Shown: positions 10,874-40,810 of the stretch, one piece after another
Position numbering within the stretch: the first letter of the stretch is position 1
Layout of the letters: each line of letters opens with the position of its first letter
Source of the DNA: a virus
Lineage: Duplodnaviria; Caudoviricetes
Strand: one strand, 5' to 3'
IMG/VR virus record: IMGVR_UViG_3300027760_000553
Location: 1-64,000 of that record
Length of the DNA stretch: 64,000 bases
Program-made: the position numbers and the translations under genes
Notes under the pieces: model-generated
Databases searched by the model: none
What the model was told of the DNA's origin: nothing
The model's input: the letters and a program-made list of their open reading frames with translations, nothing else

Positions 10874-10901
10874 AAATCCTGAGCAAGATCTAAAACTGCT
10901 C
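10874..10901 (+). ncRNA. Repeated H-type pseudoknot, copy 1
   Basis: AAATC-CT-GAGCA-A-GATCT-AAAAC-TGCTC. Confidence 0.6.
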
Positions 10902-10995
10902 AATTTTTGGCCAGCGTGTCGTCCACAGACTTATCCACAGGCTTTACGTGTGATTAAAAACACACCCATTATTTCCCAGATTTAGGGCTTTGAGT

Positions 10996-13302: not shown

Positions 13303-13331
13303 TATTTCCTGAGTATGAAATAAAACTGCTC
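13303..13331 (+). ncRNA. Repeated H-type pseudoknot, copy 2
   Basis: TATTTC-CT-GAGTA-T-GAAATA-AAAC-TGCTC. Confidence 0.65.
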
Positions 13332-13373
13332 AACACCCCCAACTAAAACCCCACAAAAGAAAAGAGAAAACAA

Positions 13374-13805: not shown

Positions 13806-13832
13806 CGACCTGAGCAAGTCGCCAAACTGCTC
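13806..13832 (+). ncRNA. Repeated H-type pseudoknot, copy 3
   Basis: CGAC-CT-GAGCA-A-GTCG-CCAAAC-TGCTC. Confidence 0.65.
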
Positions 13833-14019
13833 ACACAACTAAATAAGATTAGGGTAAGAGGCTCAGCGCCTCTCCTATGTTCGCCAGGCTGATTAGGGCG
13901 ACAATAGAAATACTATAGAGCCACCTTATTGGGCAGGTGTAAGAACCCATACGAAACAGATCCAGTTTGAGAGTGTTCTCGGATAATGTCGTAAGTAAGA
14001 ACTCTACCCTTCGGGGTCC

Positions 14020-14525: not shown

Positions 14526-14553
14526 TAAACCTGAGCACGTTTACAAACTGCTC
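14526..14553 (+). ncRNA. Repeated H-type pseudoknot, copy 4
   Basis: TAAAC-CT-GAGCA-C-GTTTA-CAAAC-TGCTC followed by a U tract. Confidence 0.65.
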
Positions 14554-14664
14554 ATTTTTTATTTAAATTTGCCAGCCCATTTTTTATAAATGTCAAGCGA
14601 CACGCCGATGTGTTTAAGATCACACCTAAAAATGTCCATATTGTCTATGTTTAACTATCCCGAT

Positions 14665-15753: not shown

Positions 15754-15781
15754 AATTCCTGAGCAAGAATTAAAACTGCTC
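15754..15781 (+). ncRNA. Repeated H-type pseudoknot, copy 5
   Basis: AATTC-CT-GAGCA-A-GAATT-AAAAC-TGCTC. Confidence 0.65.
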
Positions 15782-15790: not shown

Positions 15791-15864
15791 GGAGTGTTAG
15801 CATAGTTGGTTAATGCGCTACCCTGTCACGGTAGAGATCACGGGTTCAAGTCCCGTACACTTCG
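15791..15864 (+). tRNA. tRNA-Asp(GTC)
   Basis: Acceptor GGAGTGT/ACACTTC; anticodon arm CTACC-CTGTCAC-GGTAG; T arm GGTTCAAGTCC. Confidence 0.92.
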
Positions 15865-18906: not shown

Positions 18907-18955
18907 AAGGTGGGGCGTGGGACTTTTGCCTGTCTTGCGCCCCCCTTACTTTTTT
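18907..18955 (+). terminator. Probable intrinsic terminator
   Basis: AAGGTGGGGCGTGGGAC...GTCTTGCGCCCCCCTT followed by ACTTTTTT. Confidence 0.5.
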
Positions 18956-19549: not shown

Positions 19550-20320
19550 ATGTCAAACCACATTTGTCAAACCTTATTACGATGGATGTAAAAATTTTCC
19601 AGATTCTTGCCCAAACCTTATTACGAAGAGTCTAAATTTTTCCAGATTCCTAGCCAAACCTTATATCATACAAACCTTTATTTGTCAAACAGGTGTATAA
19701 TAATCTTATGAGCCCAAGACATATGTCAAGAATGCTATATCCAAAAATGGCAAAACAAGAAGATAAAGGTTTGGAACAAGTCTTTACTTCCTTTACTGTT
19801 CTTATAGGGTTGGGTAGATACTTTTCTCCAGATCCCGTCGTGGCAATGTCTAATAAGACTATCGAAGATCCCGAAGCGGGACGGGATCAAAAGATAAACC
19901 ACTCTTCCCTATATAACTAATACCTGATATACAAACACTTTTATCCAAACATTATTTTCTGATGTTTTGGATATTTTTTATATCTTTTTAAATAAAATAT
20001 TACGATAATCAAACATTTTTCCCCAAATTTGGATATTTTTTTATATGGTTTTTGGGCTATAAAGGTTTGACAAATAAGGGGTTTGGGTATATAATGCATA
20101 GCCCATATAGAGTTGACAAAGGTTTGGATATGTGGTATAAGGTTTGGGGATAGGGGGTTTGGGGCCCCTGGGATTACGACGCCCTTCTATAAATGCTCCA
20201 TTCTCCACTATCCTCCACTTCACTCCACTATTAGAATGTCAAACAACATAATCAGTAACATTTATTTGTGGATAAACCTGTGTATAACTAACATTTTCAG
20301 GGTATTGACATGTGGATAAC
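19550..20320. repeat. Iteron-like CAAACC repeat region with DnaA boxes (putative origin)
   Basis: CAAACCTTATTACGA at 19568 and 19612; CAAACC on + at left and GGTTTG at right; TGTGGATAA at 20267 and 20311, TGTGTATAA at 20279. Confidence 0.5.
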
Positions 20321-20668
20321 TTTCGTTGACATCCTATCCAAACCAGTGTATACTTGAAGTATGAACATATATAAAATCTCATTGTTAGATTACGACAGAG
20401 CATTCGATCTAGAAATGTTTGCCTCAACCGAAGAAGAAGCCAAGCAAATGGCTATGAGAGAAGAACCACATATGAACATTACGAAGGTGGTTTGTCTAAC
20501 CTCAATCGAGTATATACCATGACACATGTCTGCAACTATGAACTAGACCTTGATGGTCAGGTAACCTGCACTGTATGTGGTGCTATGGATGACGATATGA
20601 GTCACTCTGATGATGTGGATATCTTTGAGTCTCAGATTGACTTTGAGTGATGGCTCTGATATAATAAT

Positions 20669-20863
20669 ATGATGCTAACAATAACTCTAATCCTAATAAC
20701 CTGGTATGCCACAAAGGTATACTATACAAAAACCTTAAATCTTCAAACACCAGCCAAAGAAGAAGGTTTTATGGTTCATGCAAAATGTTATAAATGTTCT
20801 CAAACCATATACACCCATAGAGACAATCTTCGTGCTCCATACTACTGTTTGATGTGCAAATGA
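20669..20863 (+). CDS. Small TM plus zinc-ribbon protein
   Basis: N-terminal hydrophobic stretch; CYKC...CLMC. Confidence 0.5.
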   Translation: MMLTITLILITWYATKVYYTKTLNLQTPAKEEGFMVHAKCYKCSQTIYTHRDNLRAPYYCLMCK

Positions 20864-21082
20864 CAAAATCTAATTTTCCTCTGAAACTACACTATGGCAC
20901 AATGACATCAAACTACTGTATTGGGATATATCTTAATAACTGGGGGTATCCTGTAAAGCATCAATGGGATATAGGCCTTTATCTCTTTAAGTGGTATATA
21001 GGTATAGACTTCTTTAAGGATTGATACTAGGGGTAATTGGGTCTTTATTGACTTCCCCGTCAAAAATTGCTATACTTAAGGT

Positions 21083-21289
21083 ATGATCAATATGCAAATC
21101 CCTGATCCATTTCAAACCTTTGTAGCCAAAAAATATGCTAATGCCAAAGGCTATGTTCATGATTGGTTTACTGGTGAATGGTCTTATACTTGCTCTACTT
21201 GTAAGGAAGATCTTTTTGGTCCATCCCGCAAAATTCTGACAAAGATCAGGCTATATCATACAAGAAATGAGTGCTTAGGTGGCTACTAA
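21083..21289 (+). CDS. Small zinc-finger protein
   Basis: CSTC...H...C; TTGACT/TATACT promoter with leaderless start. Confidence 0.55.
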   Translation: MINMQIPDPFQTFVAKKYANAKGYVHDWFTGEWSYTCSTCKEDLFGPSRKILTKIRLYHTRNECLGGY

Positions 21290-21781
21290 ATGTACACATA
21301 CCTGGTATATGCGAGAGCCAGGAATACAATGTACAAAATGTTTAATTATTTGGGAGAGTGATGAGGATATTAATCTGTCCAATTTGTAAGAAAGAATGGG
21401 ATTTAAGATGGGGTATATTTGGACACGACTCCCTATCTAGGCATATGAAGGATGCTCACCGATAGTGCCCGTGTAGGGCATTGGAAGGTTTTATAACTCT
21501 TATTTTGCGCCGAACTCTAATAATAAAAACCTGATATACTTAAAGTAATCAGCAAATTAGGAGAAAAATGAAGACAACATACAAGTGTACAGAGTGTAAG
21601 ACAAGTATTGTTATTACCACCAAGGTTCACGAATTACCTGAGTCAATCATATGCCCGTGTGAAATGGTAATGCCAAAGGTATGATTCTTTATGTTTATTG
21701 GGTATATGCTATGATAGGCATATCTGCAGTAGTCATAGTAGAATCAATGTATCAATATTTTAAATCATTTAAGGAGAAATA

Positions 21782-22315
21782 ATGCATGTAATAATTTCAC
21801 AACCAAGATCTGGATCAAACTTCATAATTGAAAATGTAAGAAAATTTTCAGATATTACAATAGACAAACATCCATATACTCATCTATGGAATAAAGATTT
21901 TATAGAAAAAAAGTTTGAAAATAAATACATTTTGGTTCTTAGAAAACCAATGGATGTTGTTGTTTCATCATTGATACATAGTTTTGCAAATAAAGAAGAA
22001 GAAGTTCAAATAAACGAAGATGCTTTAATAAAATCTGCTGCAAGGTATTCAAGACACATTCTGCCGTGTTCAATTGACGAAGTGCTTAAGTTTGATTTTA
22101 ATGATCTAGCGTCTCAACCTCATAGAGTTATATCAGCGATTACAGATTTAGACTTCAGTGATAAAGAGTTAGTAGAACCAGAAGGTTTACATGGATCTTT
22201 AAAAATGCACAAAAGTTATGAAGATTCATATAATTTTGCACTAAAACATTCTAGTATTTTTGATGAAGCAAACATTTTATATGAAGAAGCACTTCTAAAA
22301 ACTATAAAGTTTTAA
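21782..22315 (+). CDS. Sulfotransferase-like P-loop protein
   Basis: PRSGSNF 5'-PSB-like loop; LRKPMDVVVS 3'-PB-like motif. Confidence 0.6.
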   Translation: MHVIISQPRSGSNFIIENVRKFSDITIDKHPYTHLWNKDFIEKKFENKYILVLRKPMDVVVSSLIHSFANKEEEVQINEDALIKSAARYSRHILPCSIDEVLKFDFNDLASQPHRVISAITDLDFSDKELVEPEGLHGSLKMHKSYEDSYNFALKHSSIFDEANILYEEALLKTIKF

Positions 22316-22619
22316 TAGTTTTATTTACTAATCGAATCAATGATTTTTTCTTGATTTGTTTTGATGAGAATGTTTCAGTGTATCCATTTTGAGGCATATC
22401 TTCTTTACTAAGGAATACTGCATGTTTCTTTCTTAGTGTTTGTATTACTAGGGATTCTACTGCTCTTGCCTTATCCCGCTCAAAAAAATGCCAATAACAA
22501 ACCAATTTCCACCCTTTGTTCCTATGTGTAGCAAACCTCTTACCTGATATATCTGATATGCCTATCTTAATAGCCTTGTGTGTAGGGCTATAAATGATAT
22601 ATAGGATTGCTTCATTCAT
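22302..22619 (-). CDS. GIY-YIG/T5orf172-like nuclease domain protein
   Basis: LYII...IKIGIS...RF...GYTETF. Confidence 0.6.
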   Translation of the reverse strand: MNEAILYIIYSPTHKAIKIGISDISGKRFATHRNKGWKLVCYWHFFERDKARAVESLVIQTLRKKHAVFLSKEDMPQNGYTETFSSKQIKKKSLIRLVNKTIKTL

Positions 22620-22673
22620 AGCACTATTATACTTTACATACCTTGAAATAATTAAGAATGCTATAATTAAAAT

Positions 22674-23558
22674 ATGCAAAAAGATTCGAACATACTAAAT
22701 ATGCTTCGCTTAGAGATGTATAGCACTGGAGTACTTAATGGATATGGTATGCCATTTGGCCCAAAGATCACGATTGATCCTAATACAAAGTACATCACAA
22801 ATTCCCTTGGATTTCGCACACAAGAGTTTGGTAGAACACCAGACTTTATTTTTTCTGGATGCTCTCATACTTGGGGATGGGGTATTGACGAGTCTTTGAT
22901 TTGGGGCAACCGTATTGCAAAAGCAAAGCAGATCGAGACACGAAACCTTGGTATTAGCAATGGTGCCATAACAACAATCATAGATAATCTAATCGCATAC
23001 TTTGACAAATTTGGTAAGCCAAAAGTATTATTTTGTTTATTTCCAAGTTTAGCAAGAATGAATGTTTGGACAGATAGGAGTGTTTTTGTTGGAAGACATG
23101 GTTTTGATTTTGCAAGAGATACTGCTGTTCCAACTCAGGGGGATTTACCAAAATATTCACAAAAACCACATAAGTTGGAAGAGGTTATAACCTCAAAACT
23201 GCCAACTCTATTGTCACTAAAATATATTTTAAACTTTGAGCAATACTGCGTTTCTAATAATATTATTTTTAAATATGCTTTTTGGGATCCAACAGATGAT
23301 TTCATTATGGATGGCTTACCACATAACAACAGTTACAGTGGATATGTTAAGTCTGATTCTGCTTTATGGGTTAGAGATGGTATTGTTGAGGTGTTTAATG
23401 GATCTAAGGATTGTCACACACCATGTAACGAATTAGAGCAGTACGCATGGCTTCATGGTATGGATATAGAGTTATCAAGTTTGCCCCATATTGGCGCACA
23501 TAGACAAATTCACTACTACGAACTATTTCTTAATGAATATGATAAGATTTATTCATGA
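22674..23558 (+). CDS. SGNH/GDSL-like hydrolase or acyltransferase
   Basis: NSLGFR...FSGCSHTWG...RNLG...PHIG. Confidence 0.55.
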   Translation: MQKDSNILNMLRLEMYSTGVLNGYGMPFGPKITIDPNTKYITNSLGFRTQEFGRTPDFIFSGCSHTWGWGIDESLIWGNRIAKAKQIETRNLGISNGAITTIIDNLIAYFDKFGKPKVLFCLFPSLARMNVWTDRSVFVGRHGFDFARDTAVPTQGDLPKYSQKPHKLEEVITSKLPTLLSLKYILNFEQYCVSNNIIFKYAFWDPTDDFIMDGLPHNNSYSGYVKSDSALWVRDGIVEVFNGSKDCHTPCNELEQYAWLHGMDIELSSLPHIGAHRQIHYYELFLNEYDKIYS

Positions 23559-23638
23559 AATTTATACTATTTTATTTAGAAAGACTTATTAGGTCCATAT
23601 TAAAGAAAAATAAAAAGAAAAAAGACTATATTTATTAG
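23555..23638 (+). CDS. 27-aa basic micro-protein ending in DYIY
   Basis: MKFILFYLERLIRSILKKNKKKKDYIY; ATGA overlap with the SGNH-like gene. Confidence 0.5.
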   Translation: MKFILFYLERLIRSILKKNKKKKDYIY

Positions 23639-24290
23639 ATGCTTTAAAATACAAGTATGTTATAATTTAACTATGGATAAAAATATAGAAAAATGTAATA
23701 GTTGCGATCTACCTGCCAAATATGACGATGTTGATGAGGTATCAGAGGGACAATACGAAGTTGTTGGTTTTTGTCAATGCCATATGACCAACTATCTTGT
23801 TTCTTAATCTATAGTAACCGCTATAATTGACTTCTTGTGCGCTTTAGTATATAATAGATATAAAGGAGGTAAGTTATGATTCATTCATTATTTTTAATTC
23901 CCGCTTTTATTATGGGATATGTAGCATGCTATATTGCTATGACATATAAGGTTGATCAAGATTAAAGAACCAAAGATCTTTCAAATGGACTGGCGCAGCC
24001 TTGGCTATTGGCCTGTTTGGAAAGATGGAAAGAAAATATGGGTACCTAAAGATGATAAATCATTTGACAAAGATTGAAAGAACCAAGGTCTGGCCATTAC
24101 GATGGATAGGCAATTTCCTTGGTGGATATGCTGGTAATCATTTAGTTAAGGCTATTGATTTAGATGAGTCTTTAGATAGTAATTTAGGATTTCGTTATAA
24201 ATACCACGCAAAAATGTGGAAGTATCTTAACAAACCTTACGAGTGGTGGGGAACTTATTACGAATTTGATATGGAAAGATGGAATAAAGA

Positions 24291-24527
24291 TTAAGCAATA
24301 CTGCCAGAACCAGTTACTGATCCAGCGCCGTCTATACCTTTAGGCATAGTGTATATTTCCCAGTTGTTTGTATACCCTGGAGCATATCCTGGGTTTCCAC
24401 CATTTGTAACTCTGATGTAGTATGCTCCGTTAATTCCGTATGGGTTGCCATCTGTAAGAACTACTGCGCCTAATGGATAGGCTGCGCCGTTGTTATAAGC
24501 GCCTTGGTAATTTGGTGGAAGCGCCAT
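24291..24527 (-). CDS. Small carbohydrate-binding-like (CBM5/12-like) protein
   Basis: YQGAYNNGAAYPLGAVV...YYI...PG...W pattern. Confidence 0.45.
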   Translation of the reverse strand: MALPPNYQGAYNNGAAYPLGAVVLTDGNPYGINGAYYIRVTNGGNPGYAPGYTNNWEIYTMPKGIDGAGSVTGSGSIA

Positions 24528-24940
24528 TATGCATACCAACTAATCGTGAAGCCGTCATACAGTAGGACACTGTTTCCTGTTAATCCCCAGTTTGCTTGCC
24601 ATTGTGGGAATGAAAGATCTGTGCCAGGAACTTCTCCATAGTTGTTTACTCCTGGAATTAAAGAAATACCTGAATTTATAACCTGGAATTGCATTCCGTT
24701 AAAAGCCATACCTGCGTTAGTCAAACCAGAGATTGTGATTATTGTGTTTTCTCCAGTAGGCATGTGATCCATTATATAAGAAGGGGCTGAAAAATTTTGC
24801 CAACTAAGGACTACGCCATCAAATATTGCATCTTGATTGTTTGCAGTAAAGTTAAATGACCATGACTGTAATGGATTTCCATTAATGTTACCTGAGCCTG
24901 TTACTGTTCCTGCTCCGAATATTCCTCTTGGTGCTACCAT
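24527..24940 (-). CDS. Hypothetical beta-rich protein
   Basis: ORF track; leaderless start. Confidence 0.55.
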   Translation of the reverse strand: MVAPRGIFGAGTVTGSGNINGNPLQSWSFNFTANNQDAIFDGVVLSWQNFSAPSYIMDHMPTGENTIITISGLTNAGMAFNGMQFQVINSGISLIPGVNNYGEVPGTDLSFPQWQANWGLTGNSVLLYDGFTISWYA

Positions 24941-24996
24941 GAGATTATTATATCATCTGTTTTGACATAACCTGCCAAGTAGGGTATACTGATTAT

Positions 24997-25410
24997 ATGA
25001 TTAACGAAAAGAATAACTACTTTCAATCTGAATCTAAAAGAATTGGGGATGAATTTGAAGAACTTGTTTACCAAGACCTACTTGGTCGTGGATTTAATAC
25101 TATTGATCGAGATTATTATTTTGCTGGTTCTGGGTGCGAAGTAGATTTTAGAGTACATTCAGATACCCGTTTTGAATATATAGAGGCAAAGGGCGGAAAA
25201 GCAGGGGAAGGCAAAAGACCTGGGGCGCAAAGAACAGATAATGTAAAAAAAGCAATTGCCAATGGTGCTTTAATAAAAACATTTAACGACATATATTATG
25301 TTGTTTATTTTTCTGCAAAACCTGAAGTTGGAAGTTATTCTGATGAAATGATTAACATTGCACTTAAATATAAAATAATTGATGAGGTTAGGTATCTACA
25401 AGATGCATGA
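24997..25410 (+). CDS. PD-(D/E)XK restriction-like endonuclease
   Basis: GDEFEELV...EVDF...YIEAKG. Confidence 0.65.
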   Translation: MINEKNNYFQSESKRIGDEFEELVYQDLLGRGFNTIDRDYYFAGSGCEVDFRVHSDTRFEYIEAKGGKAGEGKRPGAQRTDNVKKAIANGALIKTFNDIYYVVYFSAKPEVGSYSDEMINIALKYKIIDEVRYLQDA

Positions 25411-25975
25411 CATTAAGATTAGTGGAACAGATAACAAAAATATAGTTATTGCAAAAAATTGTTTTTCAAAAGAAGATTTAACAAATGAATCTGCCGTTTT
25501 GCAAGTAATCATTGGATCTCTAACTGCTAAATATAAAGATTTTTCTTTTAGTCTTGAAAGTTCTGATGATTTACCAAACTGGGTAAATGTATTGTTGCCA
25601 CTAAAAGGATTTAAAATAATCTTTAACTGTAATCCCAGGATATACCATGATGCGGATGAGGGGGACTTTTTAACTTTCCCATCTGAAATTGGTTTTATGA
25701 TATCAAATCAATATAATACTAACGAATTAACTAAACAGTATAAGATATATTATTACCCTAAAATTAAAAAACAAGAAGGTAGAAACAAATATACTATTAA
25801 AGCAACCCTTCAAGATAACTACAATATAGATATTTATGCAGACAGCGAAGAAGAAGCATTGCAAAAAGCATATAATATACCGCTGCCAGAATGGAATCAT
25901 GAAGAGATAGACGATAAACCAGAAAAAATGAAAATAATTAGATGGTCACGGTGGGGAAACTTTAAAATAATATGA
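25403..25975 (+). CDS. Hypothetical protein
   Basis: ORF track; C-terminal IYADSEEEALQKA motif. Confidence 0.55.
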   Translation: MHDIKISGTDNKNIVIAKNCFSKEDLTNESAVLQVIIGSLTAKYKDFSFSLESSDDLPNWVNVLLPLKGFKIIFNCNPRIYHDADEGDFLTFPSEIGFMISNQYNTNELTKQYKIYYYPKIKKQEGRNKYTIKATLQDNYNIDIYADSEEEALQKAYNIPLPEWNHEEIDDKPEKMKIIRWSRWGNFKII

Positions 25976-26538
25976 AATCAAAACAAATTCATCTAAGTTA
26001 TTATCCAAGATCTGGAACAACATTTTTTATAAAAAATTCTAAGATATTATTTCCAAGTAGCCTTATTGTTTCATATGCAACAGGAAATGGTATTCAAAAA
26101 TTTTTAAATAATAAAAGTTTGTTTCATTTTTCAATAATTAGAAACCCAATTGATTTGATATCTTCTGAGGTTACATTAGAGATGATGAAAAATGTAGAAA
26201 GTGTAAATAGAATTGAATATAGATCAATAAAGCGTATAGACTTGCTGGAAAATTTTTATAATTCAATAAAAGAAAACGAACATGTAAGTATATTTGATTT
26301 TAATGATTTGACTTTAAAACCTAAAGAACTTTTTAGTTATTTGGCAAAAAATAATGATGTTCAATTAAACAATAAAGATATTGTAAAGGTTAGTCCCATG
26401 CCAAATGTTTTTTTTGCATCTGCAAAAGAAGTTGAAAGTTATGAAAAGGTAAGGGATGTCATTTTAAACAATGTAGACTTATACAAAATTAATAAAATGT
26501 ATGATGAATTAATTAATAAAAAATTTGCTATAAGTTGA
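25972..26538 (+). CDS. Sulfotransferase-like protein
   Basis: YPRSGTTF; IRNPIDLISS. Confidence 0.6.
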   Translation: MKSKQIHLSYYPRSGTTFFIKNSKILFPSSLIVSYATGNGIQKFLNNKSLFHFSIIRNPIDLISSEVTLEMMKNVESVNRIEYRSIKRIDLLENFYNSIKENEHVSIFDFNDLTLKPKELFSYLAKNNDVQLNNKDIVKVSPMPNVFFASAKEVESYEKVRDVILNNVDLYKINKMYDELINKKFAIS

Positions 26539-26719
26539 CTTAACCACTGATTTGATGTATACTAATTACATGGTAAAAGAAATCAATATTGAGGATATTC
26601 CAGATAACATTAAAGACAAAATAATTAAAAATTATTTAATTAGATATTATCATTGGACAATTGGGTGCTTTTCTTTTCTTGTTGGCATATTGCTTGGCAT
26701 ATTAATATCTTAATTACAT

Positions 26720-26793
26720 GCACCAGTAGCCAAGTTGGTTAAGGCACCGAACTCATAATTCGGCTATCGTAGGTTCAAGTCCTACCTGGTGTA
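26720..26793 (+). tRNA. tRNA with CAT anticodon (elongator Met or Ile2)
   Basis: Acceptor GCACCAG/CTGGTGT; anticodon arm CCGAA-CTCATAA-TTCGG. Confidence 0.9.
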
Positions 26794-26797
26794 CGAT

Positions 26798-26871
26798 GCG
26801 GATGTTGCATATTGGTAGTGCCTCTGCCTTCCAAGCAGAAGGGGTGAGTTCGATTCTCATCATCCGCTCCA
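26798..26871 (+). tRNA. tRNA-Gly(TCC) with encoded CCA
   Basis: Acceptor GCGGATG/CATCCGC; anticodon arm TCTGC-CTTCCAA-GCAGA. Confidence 0.92.
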
Positions 26872-26872
26872 A

Positions 26873-26945
26873 GTCTCCATGGTCTAGTGGCCTAGGACTC
26901 CACCCTTTCACGGTGGCAACACGGGTTCGAATCCCGTTGGAGATA
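26873..26945 (+). tRNA. tRNA-Glu(TTC)
   Basis: Acceptor GTCTCCA/TGGAGAT; anticodon arm CCACC-CTTTCAC-GGTGG. Confidence 0.92.
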
Positions 26946-26954
26946 CAATATCAT

Positions 26955-26996
26955 TCCTAGATCGTCTAACGGCAGGACAGGGGCCTCTCAAGCCCT
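26955..26996 (+). pseudogene. Truncated tRNA (5' half only, CTC anticodon)
   Basis: D arm GTC-TAACGGCAG-GAC and anticodon arm GGGGC-CTCTCAA-GCCCT; no T arm or 3' acceptor strand. Confidence 0.6.
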
Positions 26997-27010
26997 TATA
27001 AACCTATTAC

Positions 27011-27083
27011 ACCTCTGTAGTTCAGTGGACAGAACGATGGACTTCTAAGCCATGCGTCGCAAGTTCGATTCTTGCCAGGGGTA
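27011..27083 (+). tRNA. tRNA-Arg(TCT)
   Basis: Acceptor ACCTCTG/CAGGGGT; anticodon loop CTTCTAA; T loop GTTCGATTC. Confidence 0.88.
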
Positions 27084-27112
27084 CAACATGATATACTTTT
27101 AACGGAGGGCAT

Positions 27113-27814
27113 ATGCCAAAAATACCAGTAAATGGATTTAATGATGATGGAAGTCTTAAAAAATTACAAGATGATCAAATTGAGCATACCCCATTAATAT
27201 CCCAGGATCAGTTAAATAATGCAAAAATATTTTCTTCTAGAGAAGAATACATAAAGCATTTACCTAAAAATATTAAATATATGGAGATTGGTGTTTCTTG
27301 GGGATATTATTCAAAACTAATAGCCGATATATGTGAACCAAATGAGATATGGCTTTTAGATAGATATTCAATTGACTCAAGATGTTGGAGTTGGATTAGA
27401 ACTGGATCCTGTCAATGCGAGCCAACAAAGCATACAATTCTTTTTACACCAGAAACCCATGAAAAATATATTAAAGATGAATTTTCTAAATATAAAAATG
27501 TTTACATTATTAAGGGAGAAGCAGAAAATACTTTGCCAAACCAAGATAAAGATTTTGATTATATATATTTTGATACACACAACGATAGAGAACATACAAA
27601 GATAATGCTTGATGAAATATCAAAGCATGTCAAAGTTGGTGGAATAATTGGAATAAATGACTATTTAATTTATGACGGAATGAATTGGGATGATTTTTAT
27701 GGAACTTATTTTTCTGTTAATTGGTTCTTAAATAATAATAAAAATTGGTCTGTTAAAGCATTGGCTTTACAGAATTATAGTTTTAATGATATATATCTTA
27801 CAAAGGATTTTTAA
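27113..27814 (+). CDS. Class I SAM-dependent methyltransferase (Methyltransf_24-like)
   Basis: MEIGVSWG; FDYIYFD.H; VKVGGIIGINDY. Confidence 0.75.
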   Translation: MPKIPVNGFNDDGSLKKLQDDQIEHTPLISQDQLNNAKIFSSREEYIKHLPKNIKYMEIGVSWGYYSKLIADICEPNEIWLLDRYSIDSRCWSWIRTGSCQCEPTKHTILFTPETHEKYIKDEFSKYKNVYIIKGEAENTLPNQDKDFDYIYFDTHNDREHTKIMLDEISKHVKVGGIIGINDYLIYDGMNWDDFYGTYFSVNWFLNNNKNWSVKALALQNYSFNDIYLTKDF

Positions 27815-28704
27815 TGATAGAAAACTATGATTTAAAAAATAAAGTTTATTTAAATGCAAACGACATATTTAATTATGAGTTTGATATAACTTGGATGAAT
27901 ATGCAGGAGCATCAAGGTAACAGGAATTATACACTTTTACCAATAGAAAGAGCCGAAGATGATTTTACTATAGAATATAATTTTAATAAAGATGGTTTTA
28001 GATCAGATGATTTTACAGATAAACATACCCCAGGCAAGCACATACTTTTTGCTGGTTGCTCACAAACTGAAGGGGTTGGAAGTTCGTTAGATACTGTTTG
28101 GTCAAAGATGCTTCATGATAAACTTCAATTAAATAACTTAACAGATGGCTTTTATTCTATTGCTAGATCTGGCTATGGGTGGCAAAAAATAATTGCAAAC
28201 TTTATGGCATATTCAAAAAAATATGGATTTCCAGACTATCTTTTTGTTTTAATGCCTAATATAACCAGACATTTTATTTGGCACAATAATGATTATCTAT
28301 ATATTCAAAGATATAAAGATGATGGAAATATAAATGAACCTGAACCAAAAAGTATTGTAGATGATCAACCAGCAACAATTGAAGATTATCACGAAGAGTT
28401 TTTAAATTTTTCATTAGGTTGGAAAATTTTTATAGAATATTGCAAAAAAAACAATGTTAAAATTTTATGGTCTACATGGGATTATTCAGATAATCATAAC
28501 ATAAAATTATTTAATCAGCATGAAGATTTTTTTGAAATGAATCATGAAGAGTATATGAAGATGATAAAAGATAAAAGACCAAACGGAATTTTAGAAAGAT
28601 ATGATATTAAAAGAAGAGATGGTCATGCTGGTGTTTTATCTCACGAGTATTGGTTGAATTCTTTTGTAAAAGAATTAAGGAGGTTTGGAATTGAAATTAA
28701 TTAA
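27814..28704 (+). CDS. SGNH/GDSL-like hydrolase or acyltransferase
   Basis: FNKDGFRSD...FAGCSQTEGVG...RDGHAG. Confidence 0.55.
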   Translation: MIENYDLKNKVYLNANDIFNYEFDITWMNMQEHQGNRNYTLLPIERAEDDFTIEYNFNKDGFRSDDFTDKHTPGKHILFAGCSQTEGVGSSLDTVWSKMLHDKLQLNNLTDGFYSIARSGYGWQKIIANFMAYSKKYGFPDYLFVLMPNITRHFIWHNNDYLYIQRYKDDGNINEPEPKSIVDDQPATIEDYHEEFLNFSLGWKIFIEYCKKNNVKILWSTWDYSDNHNIKLFNQHEDFFEMNHEEYMKMIKDKRPNGILERYDIKRRDGHAGVLSHEYWLNSFVKELRRFGIEIN

Positions 28705-28777
28705 TAAAATAATTGTTTGGTACAGATTTAAAAAAATAGAAAAACAGATCAAAAAACAAGAAAAATATATATATTAA
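28691..28777 (+). CDS. 28-aa basic micro-protein ending in KYIY
   Basis: TTG start after AGGAGG; LKLINKIIVWYRFKKIEKQIKKQEKYIY. Confidence 0.5.
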   Translation: MKLINKIIVWYRFKKIEKQIKKQEKYIY

Positions 28778-28923
28778 TTATCTTTCAGATTTTGGTTTTA
28801 ACTGTGTTGTTCGATCAAAATAGCGTTCAATCTTTGCTTTAATAGTTCCATCTTTACGCATCTTAACAATCCAACCATCTTTGATTTGAGTATCATTAAA
28901 TGATCCCGCTTTTTTCTTTGGCA

Positions 28924-29913
28924 TTATAGTGAGTGTCTTTCTGTGTTAACTCTTGTGTAATCTTTTCCAAAATCAGCAAATAAGGCCTTATCCTTTTCAC
29001 GATTAACTATTGATCTTGACCAAGAGAATCCTGCGTCTCCACCCCATGCTAACCACATGATGTATCCGTTAGATGGGTTTGCTGAGTTACCCCAGTCCTT
29101 ACCTTTCTTGTCTACTTCATGGCGTGAGAAGTATGAGTACATCCTCTTAACAGTACTAAGAGAGATTGATTCTCCTCTTGCTAACTGCCCTGCACGAGTC
29201 CAACCTACAGATGTTCCAGCACCATTTGCTTTTCCATCTTCCTTAAACTTAATTGCTCTACGAGCAGCAGATCTTGCTCCTGCTGGTGGTGAGTATCCAT
29301 CTGCCTTTGAAACTGTATCTGTATCATATTCAACTGTGTCATCATCTTCAAACAGATCATCTGCTTTTGCATCAGGAACACAGTTAGGAACTGGTTTACC
29401 ATTATCTCCTGGTTTCATTCCTCTTTGTACATATCCATCCCAACAAGGTGCTTGCTTATTTAGATCAGCACAACAATCACTTTTCATTTCATTTGCTTGA
29501 CAAACAGGACAGTTTTCACAATTTACATTTAGTTCTTTACATGTCGGACATCCACAACCATCATACTCTTTACCTTGATATGTATTTGTTGGCATCATTG
29601 AATCATCTGCTTTGCCCATCTGAGCATCAAACATTGCCATTCCTATTTCTGAGTCCATTGTGTGGTTTTCCATTTCTACTTTTGTAGCATCCTTGTACAT
29701 CATTCCAATACTGTATGCTGTTGGTTCCCATTTACCGTTTTCTTCTTTATAAATTCTAACAGCCATTGCTGGGTTCTCTGGTGGCATAGACTGAATTGCA
29801 TACTCTGTTCCAGGTGTACCGTAAATTCCACCCTCTGTCATTATGTGTTCAACTACACCATGAACAACACCCTCTGATGTTGAACCCATAACAAAATCTC
29901 CTTCTTTTATCAT
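28924..29913 (-). CDS. Multi-domain protein, probably head-associated (Tudor-like N-terminus, Cys-rich segment, PCWDGY motif, conserved C-terminal domain)
   Basis: ORF track, start refined to MIKEGDFV; TVKRMYSYFSRH...WLAWGGDAG domain. Confidence 0.55.
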   Translation of the reverse strand: MIKEGDFVMGSTSEGVVHGVVEHIMTEGGIYGTPGTEYAIQSMPPENPAMAVRIYKEENGKWEPTAYSIGMMYKDATKVEMENHTMDSEIGMAMFDAQMGKADDSMMPTNTYQGKEYDGCGCPTCKELNVNCENCPVCQANEMKSDCCADLNKQAPCWDGYVQRGMKPGDNGKPVPNCVPDAKADDLFEDDDTVEYDTDTVSKADGYSPPAGARSAARRAIKFKEDGKANGAGTSVGWTRAGQLARGESISLSTVKRMYSYFSRHEVDKKGKDWGNSANPSNGYIMWLAWGGDAGFSWSRSIVNREKDKALFADFGKDYTRVNTERHSL

Positions 29914-29917
29914 AATA

Positions 29918-30367
29918 TTAGTCGTTTCCAACTTCTTTAAGTGATGCAGTAAGCATCCAGTGCCATCTCTGGTGCATGTCCATGCGTTCTGCAAAGAAGT
30001 TTGCAATTGCATGTTGTCTATTTTGTGTAGCAAGATCAACAGCATCTGTAAGTTTTGCAAGAACCATATCATTAGCCATAAGTAAATCTGCAGACATCAT
30101 CATTGGATCTGAAGTAACATCAGGCTCTCCAACTTCATTTAATACAATAAATCTTGATAGTTTAAATGGTGCATATGTATCTAACTTACGAAGCCATTCA
30201 GCATAGGTGTCTGTTGCTTGATCGTAGTCTGTATAAATATTTTCAAAAAGTTCGTGGAATTGAACAAAATCATCGCCTTCTACATTCCAGTGATACCCAT
30301 GAGCCTTCAGTTTAAGGGTAATATTATCTGCAAGCAGGACCTTAAGGGTATTAATTAGTTCTTCCAT
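29918..30367 (-). CDS. dps: Dps-family ferritin-like DNA protection protein
   Basis: HGYHWNVEGDDFVQFHELFENIY...DTYAE...HWML. Confidence 0.9.
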   Translation of the reverse strand: MEELINTLKVLLADNITLKLKAHGYHWNVEGDDFVQFHELFENIYTDYDQATDTYAEWLRKLDTYAPFKLSRFIVLNEVGEPDVTSDPMMMSADLLMANDMVLAKLTDAVDLATQNRQHAIANFFAERMDMHQRWHWMLTASLKEVGND

Positions 30368-30391
30368 GCTTATCATTATAGCATAGTAAGT

Positions 30392-30479
30392 GAGCAGTTT
30401 TTTACAGTCATGCTCAGGACTATACCAGTTATTTAGTGTCGCTGTCTCCCCCGACATTTTTCCTATTCGGAAAAGTCCT
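30392..30479 (-). ncRNA. Putative ~88-nt small RNA ending in pseudoknot copy 6
   Basis: Own TG-A-TATAAT at 30485-30490; hairpins UUUUCC/GGAAAA and UGUCG/CGACA; TATAGTC-CT-GAGCA-T-GACTGTA-AAAAAC-TGCTC. Confidence 0.55.
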
Positions 30480-30537
30480 ATACTATTATATCATATGCTA
30501 TAATTGAATTAAGTTTTGATCTATCAGAGGAGAACAA

Positions 30538-31239
30538 ATGGATTCACGTAAACTTGAAAATGAAAAAAATAGCATTACAGAAAGTAGAAATTTTAATAAA
30601 TTTAAATATACGTTGCTTGCCCCTGGAGTACACATCTATGATAATGTTTGGGATCAAGGAATGGATTTCATGAAGCAACTAGAAGACAAGGGATCTTTTG
30701 TTAGAGAAGATTATATTGTTGACTCTGAGGGTAATAAGATTCCAAAAGAGGTTGGGAAGCGTGGAGTAAGCACATGGGTAAAAAGACATCAAGATCCTCA
30801 AGGTGCTGCACTTATTGCTAACGCTTTTGAGGAAGTTATAGACTCTTATTTATGGCATTATGATTTAGATCCAAAAAGTAGGGAAGAGTGGAGAATCAGC
30901 AAGTACACTGATGGAGATTATTTTGGAATGCACCCTGATGACTCTTATGGAACTCCAAGAACAATATCCATGGTGTATTATCCAAACGATGATTACGAAG
31001 GTGGAGAACTTGAATTCATTCATTTTGGTGTAAAGGTTAAACCAAAAGCAAATCAACTTATAATATTCCCATCTTCATATATTTACGAACATAGGATAAC
31101 CGATATTGGTGCTGGAAATCCAAGATACACAATCGTGTCTTTTCTTTCAAATATAACACAAAAAGAAAGAAACGAAAGACTTAAAGATCTTCCAAATCCT
31201 TATAAAACAGATTTAAAGTATATCTCAGAAATTAAATAA
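30538..31239 (+). CDS. Prolyl 4-hydroxylase-like 2OG-Fe(II) oxygenase
   Basis: HPDD...YPNDDYEGGELEF...FPSSYIYEH...RY. Confidence 0.85.
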   Translation: MDSRKLENEKNSITESRNFNKFKYTLLAPGVHIYDNVWDQGMDFMKQLEDKGSFVREDYIVDSEGNKIPKEVGKRGVSTWVKRHQDPQGAALIANAFEEVIDSYLWHYDLDPKSREEWRISKYTDGDYFGMHPDDSYGTPRTISMVYYPNDDYEGGELEFIHFGVKVKPKANQLIIFPSSYIYEHRITDIGAGNPRYTIVSFLSNITQKERNERLKDLPNPYKTDLKYISEIK

Positions 31240-31240
31240 A

Positions 31241-31277
31241 AAATAGGCTAAGAGTTTTTATTCTCCTAGCCTATTTT
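31241..31277. terminator. Bidirectional terminator hairpin
   Basis: AAATAGGCTAAGAG...CTCCTAGCCTATTTT between convergent genes. Confidence 0.7.
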
Positions 31278-31286
31278 ATTTTTATA

Positions 31287-31571
31287 TTACTTCTTTGGTG
31301 CAGCCTTCTTTACTGCTGCCTTCTTACGGGCTGGAGCCTTCTTAACTGTTGCCTTCTTTACTGCAGCATCTACTTCTGCTACTTCTGGAAGACGACCAAA
31401 TGCTGTGTCATTTGGATTAACTGCTCTCAATGCTACTGGTGCGATTGCAGCAACCAATGAGTATGCAAGAGTCTTTGGATCAGTGACGCCAGACATGTAT
31501 AGTGCAAGTGCTGCACCCAGTACTGATCGTCCGTATGATGCCAAGATAGCCTTAATTTGTTCTGTATTCAT
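31287..31571 (-). CDS. Holin-like membrane protein with Lys/Ala-rich tail
   Basis: Two hydrophobic segments; LRAVNPNDTAFG; KKAPARKKAA tail. Confidence 0.5.
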   Translation of the reverse strand: MNTEQIKAILASYGRSVLGAALALYMSGVTDPKTLAYSLVAAIAPVALRAVNPNDTAFGRLPEVAEVDAAVKKATVKKAPARKKAAVKKAAPKK

Positions 31572-31581
31572 TTTATTCCTC

Positions 31582-31740
31582 CTAGGATATAATCTGTGTT
31601 AGTATTGTTGCACCAAGCCAAATACCAATAATTCCTGCGAGTCCCGCAAAAATTGGTGGTGCTGGCACTGGCAATTTGAATGCTGCGAACACGGCACCGC
31701 ACCCAAAACCTGTTATTGTTGATAAAATAATGTCTTTCAT
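31582..31740 (-). CDS. XapX/DUF1427-like small membrane protein
   Basis: Manual translation GAVFAAFKLPVPAPPIFAGLAGIIGIWLG. Confidence 0.75.
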   Translation of the reverse strand: MKDIILSTITGFGCGAVFAAFKLPVPAPPIFAGLAGIIGIWLGATILTQIIS

Positions 31741-32126
31741 TAATCTTCCTTTGGTAGTAATTGCTTTAACTGGTCATAAGAATCAACAATCTTTTTCATA
31801 GAGTAATAGTTTGGACCCATTGCAGTAAGATCGCTATATTCCCTAAAATATTTAATTTCTGGCTCAACATCATTAATAAACTTGTTTAGGCCACTCTGAA
31901 CTTCTTCTATGTATTTAAATGCATCTTGTCTTGAACCTTCAACAAAGTTTAAAAAAGATTTACTATTTTCAATTTTCATTCTATCAAGAATTATTGCTTT
32001 ATCTAAATTTGATTGAGTTAGTTCATTTTTTGTTTTTATTGATTTAAATCTTGTTATAAACAATTGAAAAATTAAAAAAATAAAAACAGAAATAAATACA
32101 GTAAAAACAATATAATCAAAAATCAT
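31740..32126 (-). CDS. Hypothetical membrane-anchored protein
   Basis: ORF track. Confidence 0.55.
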   Translation of the reverse strand: MIFDYIVFTVFISVFIFLIFQLFITRFKSIKTKNELTQSNLDKAIILDRMKIENSKSFLNFVEGSRQDAFKYIEEVQSGLNKFINDVEPEIKYFREYSDLTAMGPNYYSMKKIVDSYDQLKQLLPKED

Positions 32127-32359
32127 AGTTCTTTTCCTCCCTCTCTCACAAGTAGTACTATTGCACCATTATCCTCTAAGGCTTTTTTTACACGAATCAT
32201 ATATTCTACGGCAGCAACACGATCTTCAACTGTTAGCCTCATAAACTCTGGCTCACTGGCTTTTACAGTAATAAAATTATCATTATCAACCAAAGTAACA
32301 TTAAAGTTTTTAGGTGCATGAATGGAGCGAAATGCTCTTTTCATTTGATCTGTATACAT
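32123..32359 (-). CDS. Hypothetical protein
   Basis: ORF track. Confidence 0.55.
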   Translation of the reverse strand: MYTDQMKRAFRSIHAPKNFNVTLVDNDNFITVKASEPEFMRLTVEDRVAAVEYMIRVKKALEDNGAIVLLVREGGKEL

Positions 32360-33582: not shown

Positions 33583-33867
33583 TTATTTATCCATCGTTAA
33601 ATATTGCCAGGTATTGGTCCAGTCTTGTTTTTCTTTATGAGAATTAAACTCTTTTGAAATAGTACCATTTTCTAAATATATACCGCCCCACACACCCCAC
33701 TCTTTTCCAGAGATGCCATGTGCAAAACAAGTTTTTGAAACAGGGCAACTAGAACACAACTTGTCTATTGCTAACCTCAAATCAACTTCATCTTCATATT
33801 TTTCAAAAAATATATTTGTATCATATTCAAAACAAGCCCCATCATCTTTCCATGCATGTCTATTCAT
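33583..33867 (-). CDS. whiB: WhiB-family Fe-S transcriptional regulator
   Basis: Four Cys (AC...CSSCPV..C) and GVWGG. Confidence 0.9.
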   Translation of the reverse strand: MNRHAWKDDGACFEYDTNIFFEKYEDEVDLRLAIDKLCSSCPVSKTCFAHGISGKEWGVWGGIYLENGTISKEFNSHKEKQDWTNTWQYLTMDK

Positions 33868-39374: not shown

Positions 39375-40810
39375 TTATTATAATCCATTCCTGTTAAAAT
39401 TTTAAAGTCGTATTCTTTTTCCCAATTTAAAATATCGTTGTTATCGTTTAATAAAGGTTGACCCTTAATATTCAGACTTGTATTCAATAATAATGGTACA
39501 CCTGTTTTAAGATAAAACTTATTAATAGTCCTCCACAAACCTCTATGCTGATGCTTGTTTACGGTTTGCACCCTAGATGTACCGTCAGCATGGACTACAG
39601 ATGGAATCTTTTCTGGTTGTAAACATTTAACTGTGTACTGCATATAAGGGCTTGCAAAGTCCATATCAAACCACTCAGAAGCACACTCCTCCATAACTAC
39701 TGGAGCAAATGGTCTAAACAACTCTCTTTGTTTAATTAAATTAACTTTATCTTTAATGTTTGGATCTCTTGGATCTGCAAGAATACTTCTATTTCCTAAT
39801 GCTCTTGGACCGTATTCTGCTCTACCTGATGCTACTGCCACAATTCCATCTTTTAATATACCGTCCACAATTTGCTGAACAGGATACTCTCCACCAAGAT
39901 CGTACCCCAAGTATGGATCTTTCCACTCAATATGTTTTCCATATAGTGCTGCTGCTGCTCCCAAAGAACTTCCAGCATCTCCAGGGTTAGGCATGATCCA
40001 AATCATATCAAATATCTTCCAAAGTAAAGTATTTGCAGAAGAGTTTAACGCACATCCACCCATAAAAACCAAATTCTTTTTACCAGTCATTCTTTGTGCC
40101 ATACGCATAAAATCGTTAAGCCTTTGCTCGTATACCATTTGTACTGACGCTGCTATGTCAAATTTATCTTCTTCTGAAACCCATCCCCAGTCAGTAATTC
40201 CCTTATGAAGGTTATATTTTTGTTGATCGTAATGTGGAAAATATTCATCTACCTTTTTGTAATACTTTGTCCAGTCTCCGTATGCTGCCATACCCATCAT
40301 AATATATTCTTCTTGGTTTGGCATAAGTCCAATCAACTGCGTGAAGGCTGAATAAAATAATCCAAAACTGACTGGATAGTTTTGCTTGTATTTTAACTTA
40401 ATTTTATTTCCTTCACCTGTCCAAATTGTAGAAGTATTGTATTCTCCAATAGCATCTAGGACCACAATCACGGCATCATTAAAGTCACTGGTGTAGTAAC
40501 CTGCTGCTGCATGGGAATAGTGATGACTAAAAGATTTTCTTGGAATACCAGGAAGTTCAAACCTTGGCTTCCATTCCCCAGATCCACCCCTTAAAGCCAG
40601 TCTGGAGGCCTTTAGGAGGGGCTTTTCGTAGTAAGCAATGTGATCTGGTCTGCCGTACTGTAAAGCATCTTTTATTAAACTATCATTCACATACCAATCA
40701 TTTTTTTGCTTACTATATCTTTCAGCATGCCCTGCAAATAATATTTTTTCATCTTTAATTAAGGATACAGAAGCATCATGCGATGTTTCATTTATTCCAA
40801 GAACTATCAT
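39371..40810 (-). CDS. Carbamoyltransferase (NodU/CmcH family)
   Basis: SHDAS, HHYSHAA, GGCALN, EYGPRALGNRS, FRPFAP, LLNTSLN. Confidence 0.92.
   Translation of the reverse strand: MIVLGINETSHDASVSLIKDEKILFAGHAERYSKQKNDWYVNDSLIKDALQYGRPDHIAYYEKPLLKASRLALRGGSGEWKPRFELPGIPRKSFSHHYSHAAAGYYTSDFNDAVIVVLDAIGEYNTSTIWTGEGNKIKLKYKQNYPVSFGLFYSAFTQLIGLMPNQEEYIMMGMAAYGDWTKYYKKVDEYFPHYDQQKYNLHKGITDWGWVSEEDKFDIAASVQMVYEQRLNDFMRMAQRMTGKKNLVFMGGCALNSSANTLLWKIFDMIWIMPNPGDAGSSLGAAAALYGKHIEWKDPYLGYDLGGEYPVQQIVDGILKDGIVAVASGRAEYGPRALGNRSILADPRDPNIKDKVNLIKQRELFRPFAPVVMEECASEWFDMDFASPYMQYTVKCLQPEKIPSVVHADGTSRVQTVNKHQHRGLWRTINKFYLKTGVPLLLNTSLNIKGQPLLNDNNDILNWEKEYDFKILTGMDYNK

Follow-up and report, generated by a model that had tools for sequence, protein, structure and literature searches.

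The stretch analyzed here comprises positions 1 to 64,000 of the IMG/VR virus record IMGVR_UViG_3300027760_000553 (the window, 64,000 bases). It contains a spacer of 171 bases (30367-30537, read on the minus strand) between the ATG of a dps gene (30367, minus strand) and the ATG of a 2-oxoglutarate (2OG)-Fe(II) oxygenase gene (30538, plus strand). Segment 30391-30493 of the minus strand is almost certainly a member of a conserved non-coding RNA family. The features of the locus are as follows.

30485..30493, minus strand: promoter P1, predicted extended -10 TGATATAAT; hexamer TATAAT at 30490-30485 with TGA before it; predicted start at about 30479/30478
30457..30479, minus strand: variable 5' hairpin; UUUUCC (30474-30469), loop GAAUA, GGAAAA (30463-30458), with AGGAC ahead of it
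30437..30456, minus strand: hairpin P1; 5-bp stem UGUCG/CGACA and 10-base loop GGGGAGACAG
30424..30436, minus strand: single-stranded linker CUAAAUAACUGGU; the AAA, A and CU columns are invariant in the 59-sequence alignment A1
30391..30423, minus strand: H-type pseudoknot, AUAGUC-C-UGAGCA-U-GACUGU-AAAAAAC-UGCUCA
30375..30383, minus strand: promoter P2, predicted extended -10 TGCTATAAT; TG-C-TATAAT, 7 bases ahead of the dps ATG
29918..30367, minus strand: dps/ferritin-like gene, 149 aa (Pfam Ferritin, E = 1.4e-16); ATG at 30367
30496..30504, plus strand: divergent predicted extended -10 TGCTATAAT for the oxygenase gene; mirror image of promoter P1, back to back with it
30538-31236, plus strand: 2OG-Fe(II) oxygenase gene (Pfam 2OG-FeII_Oxy_3)

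In the pseudoknot, stem S1 pairs AUAGUC (30423-30418) with GACUGU (30409-30404) and stem S2 pairs UGAGCA (30416-30411) with UGCUCA (30396-30391); loop L1 is C30417, loop L2 is U30410 and loop L3 is AAAAAAC (30403-30397). Promoters P1 and P2, both predicted from the sequence, have a sigma-70-type -10 hexamer and an upstream TG (extended -10). A two-hexamer scan for a -35 hexamer 16-18 bases upstream listed neither of them, and they are classed as -10-only promoters. The plus strand holds a mirror-image extended -10 (30496-30504), and the spacer therefore has back-to-back divergent promoters.

A first-pass annotation of this DNA had described a small RNA of about 88 nt with a possibly switchable pseudoknot, upstream of dps. 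The minus-strand TG-A-TATAAT and the 88-base sequence that it named are present (30493-30485 and 30479-30392, respectively), and AGGACU at the 5' end (30479-30474) is complementary to AGUCCU (30421-30416), which overlaps S1. The nested optimum calculated by RNAfold uses this AGGACU:AGUCCU pairing and has a free energy of -22.2 kcal/mol (z = -2.27), which was equalled by 2 of 200 shuffles. The proposal of a non-coding, structured RNA unit with its own predicted promoter is supported by the covariation and the conserved -10 position reported below. The RNA finding is real, and it is more general than that annotation held.

A conserved RNA unit in viral contigs

Hairpin P1 is the most conserved part of the RNA unit. 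Its exact 18-base core was found in at least 118 viral-contig stretches, and when the anchor was placed outside the hairpin the exact core was kept in 43 of 57 matches and a single loop base differed in 14. The outer stem pair is formed in 84% of 69 distinct sequences (UA 32, AU 17, UG 4, CG 3, GC 2) vs. 49% in shuffles. The common architecture of the unit is TAYAAT, 6 bases, zero to two variable hairpins, hairpin P1, the linker AAAUAACUGG and the pseudoknot; a minority of members have a domain of about 100 bases in place of the pseudoknot. The variable 5' hairpin segment of this phage is missing in relatives or swapped for other hairpins.

The position of the -10 element is conserved with respect to the structure. 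In 86 distinct contexts, TAYAAT ends 6 bases ahead of the first hairpin, whatever the number of hairpins. The distance from TAYAAT to hairpin P1 is 6 bases in 24 contexts, 37-38 bases (one extra hairpin) in 27 and 57 bases (two extra hairpins) in 16; TAYAAT lies at other distances in 10 of the 86, and the hexamer was not found in 9. By the constant 6-base gap, transcription should start right at the base of the structure.

The RNA is also conserved in related phages at the level of the primary sequence. The 72-base RNA core is identical at 70 of 72 positions in one related contig (L148) and at 64 of 72 in another (L172), and it is more conserved than the adjacent dps coding sequence (about 79-90%; 372 of 471 in L172). 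A scan of 98 pseudoknot-only loci with covariance model R1 found no diverged full-length unit.

The pseudoknot was searched for in IMG/VR with the pattern CCTGAGCA-N7-16-AAACTGCTC, and at least 120 stretches match. Among the matches listed, 104 of 145 have the shortest allowed spacing, unlike chance. The closing C-G pair of S1 is invariant in 113 distinct minimal copies; the second pair is formed in 99% of these (UA 55, AU 47, CG 8, GC 2; shuffled 46%), the third in 100% (GC 47, AU 25, CG 21, UA 20; shuffled 41%) and the fourth in 79% (shuffled 44%). Covariation of S1 was seen also in the 59 sequences of alignment A1. S2 (UGAGCA/UGCUCA) is near-invariant; in A1 it has 12 U.G wobbles and, rarely, a compensatory variant (GGGCA/UGCCC or UAGC/GCUA). 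L3 is A-rich with a length of 3 to 12 bases across copies. The invariant parts of the pseudoknot are thus S2, the C of L1, the closing C-G pair and the AAAC of L3, and the distal part of S1 covaries freely. By the covariation of S1 and the compensatory changes in S2, the element is therefore a genuine H-type pseudoknot with a 1-base L1, a 1-base L2 and a variable, A-rich L3.

Two other accounts of these bases were considered and rejected. A NusB/NusE boxA-like reading of the bases after UGCUC is resembled by few members, and the compensatory changes in S2 favour pairing. Pairing of the hairpin P1 loop (GAGACAG:CUGCUC) as an alternative to S2 could be drawn on paper, but it is not followed by the S2 variant of L144/L163, which covaries with S2a and not with the loop.

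The 8-10 bases behind the pseudoknot are G-poor. The +1 base is A in 157 of 227 contexts (69%), with pyrimidines at +2 and +3, and stem 2 reaches 6 bp through this A. Of the 227 contexts, 17 have ACCA behind the pseudoknot, and the copy of this phage is without it; T runs are present behind about 53 of 226 (about a quarter).

The RNA family is large (hundreds of examples), shows clean covariation and is absent from Rfam. With Rfam 15 at gathering thresholds, the whole window gave six tRNAs only. At E up to 10, region 30200-30700 gave only a snoRNA fragment and, on the opposite strand, ncS54 (14.8 bits, where 43 are required), and ten related loci gave only tRNAs and their mirror matches. By blastn, neither the region nor the RNA has a relative among cultured phage genomes, and tblastn with Dps returned nothing above 27-33% matches. 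One genome each of 185,579 bacterial and archaeal species gave 28 matches. Two of these look real, both on low-GC contigs of about 23 kb binned into metagenome-assembled genomes; the remaining 26 are chance matches in high-GC DNA. The conclusion that the RNA unit represents a widespread, unannotated structured RNA family of uncultured lake phages is well supported.

Text searches of the literature did not find the motif sequences, and a conceptual search gave general motif-discovery papers only. The main-text passages of PMC10690425, a 2023 catalogue, describe the mining of IMG/VR intergenic regions for covarying structures; of its 8,495 unnamed candidates, some sit immediately ahead of genes and others resemble terminators. 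The RNA described here comes from the same IMG/VR collection; the motif is not described in those passages, and the supplementary tables of that paper may or may not list it.

Some related contigs (L151, L178, L270 and L230; also L008, L009, L046, L059, L066 and L098) contain tandem arrays of small promoter-driven RNAs. The second RNA in these arrays has about 125 bases, a T-loop-like hairpin and the same pseudoknot at its end (variant ...UAAUAGACCUGAGCAGUCGUCUAUAAACUGCUC). In other contigs a third domain is fused to hairpin P1 where the pseudoknot would be. None of these RNAs and domains had an Rfam match.

Contexts of the RNA unit and the pseudoknot

The genes downstream of the RNA vary among members and include those for SNase-like nucleases, FmdB-type zinc ribbons, APS-kinase-like proteins, 2OG oxygenases, unknown proteins, a tRNA and dps. 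The RNA usually sits behind a phage hsp20 gene (six of six tested were Pfam HSP20), and the promoter-RNA(-P2-dps) cassette lies behind hsp20 in L148 and L172 and in a divergent spacer in this phage and L235. The downstream genes vary, and a dps or metal version of the riboswitch-like leader in the first-pass annotation is therefore unlikely: the same RNA stands ahead of unrelated genes and, in L189/L221, ahead of a tRNA. The switch between two exclusive folds fared no better. A complement of at least 6 bases to the stem-1 region occurs in the 5' leader of 1 of 67 distinct contexts, that of this phage, and is already mismatched in L235, the nearest relative; the alternative fold formed by AGGACU and AGUCCU is therefore not selected. 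Very probably, then, the RNA is not dps-specific and the switch is not conserved. The dps-linked riboswitch idea is wrong, and the element is general and not metabolic.

The arrangement behind the RNA was compared in 65 distinct contexts. In 40 of these the RNA leads straight into a Shine-Dalgarno (SD) sequence and start codon with no promoter between, and in most relatives the RNA is therefore physically a 5' leader. In nine contexts, including this phage, a -10 and a leaderless start lie behind the pseudoknot. Three contexts (L151, L178, L270) have another -10 and a further small RNA with the pseudoknot once more at its end, two (L168, L174) have a convergent gene at most 13 bases behind the RNA, and the rest have other promoter-like arrangements. 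The RNA can therefore stand alone, as relatives with a convergent gene or a second small RNA behind it show. The view that the RNA need not be a leader of dps is supported by the -10 that dps has of its own and by these stand-alone relatives.

The dps gene is likely to have its own leaderless promoter, as predicted from promoter P2. The TATAAT that had been reported for it belongs to TG-C-TATAAT at 30383-30375, 7 bases before the ATG. The offsets from an extended -10 to the start of an open reading frame (ORF) peak at 6-7 bases, with 12 genes vs. 0-4 at each other offset between 0 and 30. These 12 starts are without an SD sequence (window positions 1862, 2820, 4049, 11729, 20672, 21083, 22674, 24940, 30367 and 39994; G000 positions 85664 and 94260). 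Leaderless messages are therefore a regular feature, and dps belongs to this class. The P2-type -10 geometry is kept ahead of dps in L148, L235 and L172, and it is found ahead of other genes in L145 and L176. On any read-through transcript from promoter P1, the dps AUG would be internal and without an SD sequence.

The pseudoknot is a separate module, which also ends small RNAs, precedes tRNAs and sits 9-10 bases before ribosome-binding sites. Among short copies elsewhere (147 distinct), 65 have a stop codon at a distance of 0-10 bases on the upstream side, and the number rises to 78 at 0-15 bases; short pseudoknots are often 100-300 bases away from the next ORF. The pseudoknot lies about 8 bases ahead of tRNA genes in 16 contexts. 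Of 73 SD contexts, 47 have an SD sequence that begins 7-11 bases past the pseudoknot, most often at 9-10 bases, and a -10 hexamer is frequently found 8-13 bases behind the pseudoknot.

Within this phage, the pattern CTGAG-N10-22-ACTGCTC has six matches in the window vs. 0.08 expected, and six were reached in 0 of 100 shuffles. The same six are the sole clean copies across the whole record of 99,582 bases. Besides the copy in the RNA unit, the five others are on the plus strand in the early-gene block, so that the earlier remark that the RNA carries the same element as the early mRNAs is upheld. Each of the five begins 6-15 bases past the stop codon of a plus-strand ORF, and the copies in this phage are dispersed, with spacings of 500 to 15,000 bases. 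The five plus-strand copies are listed here.

10876..10902, plus strand: 6 bases past the stop of ORF 10690-10869; T run after
13304..13332, plus strand: S1 AUUUC/GAAAU, G.U pair in S2; 10 bases past the stop at 13293; next ATG 42 bases on
13806..13833, plus strand: S1 CGAC/GUCG; 9 bases past the stop at 13796
14527..14554, plus strand: S1 AAAC/GUUU; 15 bases past the stop at 14511; T run after
15754..15781, plus strand: S1 AAUUC/GAAUU; 6 bases past the stop at 15747; tRNA-Asp (15791) 9 bases on

A predicted promoter lies behind copy 14527 (at 14685), with no canonical terminator between. Weaker promoter-like sites are found within about 115-190 bases behind copies 10876 and 13806, and for copy 15754 such a site is located behind the tRNA.

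RNA-library contigs from four lake metatranscriptome runs were placed on 12300-32200; these are contigs only, with DNA possibly present, uninformative gaps and one depth figure per contig. Contigs of runs X4 and X5 end at 14514/14517, and one ends at 15743, which leaves about 10-13 bases to pseudoknots 14527 and 15754; contigs of two relatives (X12, X16) stop at 30523/30525. From these positions we drew no conclusion on RNA ends. RNA-library contigs resume near predicted promoters (14717/14723 and 15980/15993), from which likewise neither RNA ends nor expression were concluded.

Two further observations concern the sequence behind these copies. A conserved GC-rich motif (...GCGTGTCGTCCACAG...; 10903-10940, plus strand) lies behind the pseudoknot and T run of copy 10876, and it is also found behind pseudoknots in L011 and L038. 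An ORF-free spacer of about 190 bases (13834-14019, plus strand) extends from pseudoknot 13806 to a promoter-like site TTGACA-17-TACAAT (14020-14048); it is covered by RNA-library contigs and may hold another structured RNA.

Candidate functions of the RNA unit

The placement of the pseudoknot past stop codons, at the 3' ends of small RNAs and before promoters, tRNAs and SD sequences has a 3'-boundary signal as its simplest common denominator. The reading that we favour, which as a whole stands a little short of an even chance, is that the locus encodes a promoter-proximal short RNA whose pseudoknot, as a reusable module, marks transcripts at their 3' boundary. The pseudoknot would mark the boundary either as a leaky terminator or as a processing or stabilising site, and it would be read sequence-specifically. 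Transcription from promoter P1 would give a discrete RNA of about 88 bases plus some, graded read-through, and dps would be expressed separately in this phage: the second -10, immediately behind the pseudoknot, would give a leaderless mRNA. The alternative AGGACU/AGUCCU fold would then be a local accident.

Two kinds of known structure resemble such a boundary. Like intrinsic terminators and short terminated phage transcripts, the pseudoknot lies where transcription units and small promoter-driven RNAs end, with a G-poor, A/U-rich tract behind it, a T run in about a quarter of contexts and the next promoter often directly behind. Unlike intrinsic terminators, it is a pseudoknot of conserved sequence and not a free-form GC-rich hairpin, and the copy in the RNA unit is without a T run. 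In most relatives a promoterless gene follows, so termination could only be partial. In phage T7, RNase III sites between genes are intercistronic processing structures of the mRNA. The pseudoknot resembles T7-type processing or stabilising structures in that it is conserved and repeated between early genes, past stop codons and before ribosome-binding sites, and is co-oriented with transcription; it differs in being a pseudoknot rather than a long irregular hairpin.

Several results weigh against the 3'-boundary reading. Forty of the 65 contexts need read-through into the SD sequence and start codon, and there, with a promoterless gene behind it, the pseudoknot cannot be an efficient terminator. 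A terminator scan called nothing at 30391-30423 (minus strand), where the pseudoknot is followed by ACUUACUAUGC and no T run. The near-invariance of S2, L1 and L3 is unneeded by a plain terminator or roadblock, which points to a specific reader (a protein, an RNase or a ligand). RNA-library contigs bridge copies 13304 and 13806, which is not proof of read-through, yet gives no support for termination there. Finally, the counts are of contig stretches, many of which may be one phage from several samples. Because of the missing T run, the 40 read-through contexts and the conservation of S2 and the loops, we propose only tentatively, at appreciably less than even odds, that the pseudoknot may act as a 3'-boundary (termination or processing) module.

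If the 3'-boundary reading holds, abundant lake phages, whose hosts are probably freshwater actinobacteria that are hard to culture, would share an unannotated RNA grammar in which -10-only promoters and leaderless genes go together with a pseudoknot of conserved sequence at the close of transcripts and small RNAs. The pseudoknot would then be a compact means of forming RNA 3' ends, or of making RNA stable, in actinobacteria and the phages that infect them.

The 40 contexts with an SD sequence and start codon directly behind the RNA also suggest a cis-acting 5' leader cassette, in which promoter and RNA would stabilise the downstream message or tune its translation. In such a cassette a 5'-terminal hairpin would be followed by hairpin P1, whose purine-rich, SD-like loop (GGGGAG, a likeness in sequence) could hold the 30S subunit, and by a pseudoknot just outside the ribosome-binding site. 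The RNA starts at the predicted start site of the promoter, and the spacing of 7-11 bases from pseudoknot to SD sequence in 47 of 73 SD contexts is what such a leader would have. However, this phage and at least eight other contexts have a second -10 and a leaderless start between RNA and gene, with the AUG internal and without an SD sequence, and what lies behind the RNA can also be a tRNA (L189/L221), a convergent gene (L168, L174) or another small RNA. The frequent distance of 100-300 bases from short pseudoknots to the next ORF fits a leader poorly as well, and we regard this explanation as rather doubtful.

The invariance of S2, the L1 C, the closing C-G pair and the AAAC of L3, combined with a freely covarying distal S1, is what a target or decoy for a specific RNA-binding factor would show if the factor recognised S2, the junction, L3 and the hairpin P1 loop. 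The trans-acting sRNA or decoy of the first-pass annotation corresponds to this role. Candidates for the factor are a phage-encoded regulator or endoribonuclease that would shut off early genes or mature their RNA, a processing enzyme of the host, or a defence nuclease of the host that the abundant small RNA would soak up. The several co-oriented copies confined to early transcripts, the RNA's own promoter and ability to stand alone, and its restriction to phages (2 of the 28 matches in genomes of 185,579 species look real) are consistent with this role. Against it, no candidate partner protein was identified, and the phage genome has no complementary target of the hairpin P1 loop or linker except their own antisense strand. 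The copies are dispersed and no tandem array was found in this phage, unlike in type III toxin-antitoxin (ToxI-like) RNA, and no toxin-like neighbour appeared in PHROG and Pfam scans. A role as target or decoy thus seems unlikely.

The bases behind the pseudoknot also invite comparison with tRNA. Plant-virus 3' ends of the TYMV type carry tRNA-like acceptor-arm pseudoknots. As in those, the 3' strand of S2 leaves the stacked helix and is then followed by an unpaired A (157 of 227 contexts). The pyrimidines at +2 and +3, the ACCA behind some copies (17 of 227) and, in 16 contexts, the constant distance of about 8 bases from pseudoknot to tRNA gene also fit. By this analogy the pseudoknot would be a 'tRNA punctuation', a minimal mimic of the acceptor arm that the tRNA-maturation enzymes of the host would cut (RNase Z or RNase P) and then cap (the CCA-adding enzyme). 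Five of the six tRNA genes of the phage are without an encoded CCA, so the host must run a CCA-adding pathway. If true, phage mRNAs and small RNAs would get defined, protected 3' ends and the downstream RNA would be released. Unlike in the TYMV type, CCA is not general. ARAGORN found six tRNAs, none of them at the element, and the Rfam tRNA model found nothing there. We consider this possibility improbable.

At the level of DNA, the stretch could be a promoter or upstream element, or a recombination cassette for gene shuffling, with the RNA fold incidental. Cassettes of a promoter plus a stem-loop have been described in T4-type phages. The cassette is mobile, being behind hsp20 in L148 and L172 vs. 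in a divergent spacer in this phage and L235, and a -10 often lies 8-13 bases behind the pseudoknot. A DNA element would not account for the covariation of S1 through four pair types around a fixed loop, the varying length of L3 (3 to 12 bases), the tolerance of G.U pairs or the co-orientation of every copy with genes. No phage RNA polymerase family was found in PHROG scans of 83 ORFs. An explanation at the DNA level is very unlikely.

A ligand-sensing, riboswitch-like pseudoknot is highly improbable. In topology and conservation logic the pseudoknot is like preQ1-I (Rfam RF00522) and other minimal aptamers: an H-type fold of about 30 bases with a short covarying S1 of 4-6 bp, a conserved loop and S2, and an A-rich L3 that is predicted to occupy the stem 1 groove. 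In a few relatives (L051, L146, L157, L210) CUCCU after S2 could pair with the SD sequence instead. Such pairing is not general, with +1 being A in 69% of contexts, and no match to the RF00522 covariance model, or to any Rfam family at E up to 10, was found. Unlike that of preQ1-I, the 6-bp S2 looks constitutive and should fold without ligand. The many copies per genome, which follow stop codons, end small RNAs and precede tRNAs and unrelated genes, and the lack of queuosine/preQ1 genes downstream are further differences.

The last alternative, that the stretch encodes an N-terminal extension of Dps (MSGETAT...), can be dismissed with near certainty: a frame is open from ATG 30457 into dps, but L148 has ATT in place of this ATG, the frame is closed in L051 and others and is closed or shifted in members with nearly identical RNA, and conservation is at the nucleotide level with covariation of the RNA type, not that of a coding sequence. 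Residues 2-144 of Dps align to positions 6-148 of the 149 in the profile of PHROG 3636; the profile is thus covered end to end by the 149-aa protein, so the extension is not needed.

The phage and other features of the window

The record represents a large siphovirus from lake water, with genes for a 3074-aa tape measure, portal, protease, capsid and terminase. An N4-type phage RNA polymerase promoter (DNA hairpin) was considered for this phage and rejected: the 3074-aa ORF is the tape measure, and the supposed polymerase subunits are GP88 and DUF932 proteins. WhiB-like proteins are a hallmark of actinobacteria and their phages. A WhiB-like gene is present at 33679-33852 (minus strand; Pfam PF02467, E = 2.1e-12, over the cut-off), and the best matches of the DUF932 protein are mostly from actinophages. 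These two findings suggest an actinobacterial host, and the phage is probably an actinophage.

A second promoter-like motif was observed ahead of small plus-strand genes. It consists of AAATGTCAG, about 8 bases and an extended -10 (TGnTAnAcT), and resembles an early promoter. The ATGTCAG box is too near the -10 for a normal -35, so a phage or host factor may read it. The sites, all on the plus strand, are the following.

7625-7651, plus strand: early-promoter-like motif
8813-8839, plus strand: early-promoter-like motif
11000-11024, plus strand: early-promoter-like motif
12140-12164, plus strand: early-promoter-like motif
13070-13094, plus strand: early-promoter-like motif
14667-14693, plus strand: early-promoter-like motif

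Two terminator-like sequences lie near the RNA unit. On the plus strand at 30437-30462, the reverse complement of hairpin P1 and the A run of the first hairpin read as a hairpin followed by TTTTT; this would face antisense transcription over dps and has the weak Rfam ncS54 match (E = 1.3). On both strands at 31240-31277, a 15-bp hairpin with A and T runs at its flanks lies between the convergent ends of the oxygenase gene and of the gene at 31287-31571. As a canonical bidirectional terminator, the latter shows that ordinary terminators are used by the host polymerase.

Genes for 2OG-Fe(II) oxygenase-like proteins are unusually many for one phage genome, with at least five to seven paralogues (4768-5364, 30538-31236, 40810-41370, 41465-42064, 56397-57170 and 58123-58767; G000 98029-98550). 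Positions 1-430 contain 12-base repeats (GGTGTAACTGCn) in a tail-fibre-like ORF, which are collagen-like Gly-X-Y coding repeats, and similar low-complexity, Ala/Ser-rich repeats occur at 50540-51350 in a structural gene (about 50.5-51.3 kb).

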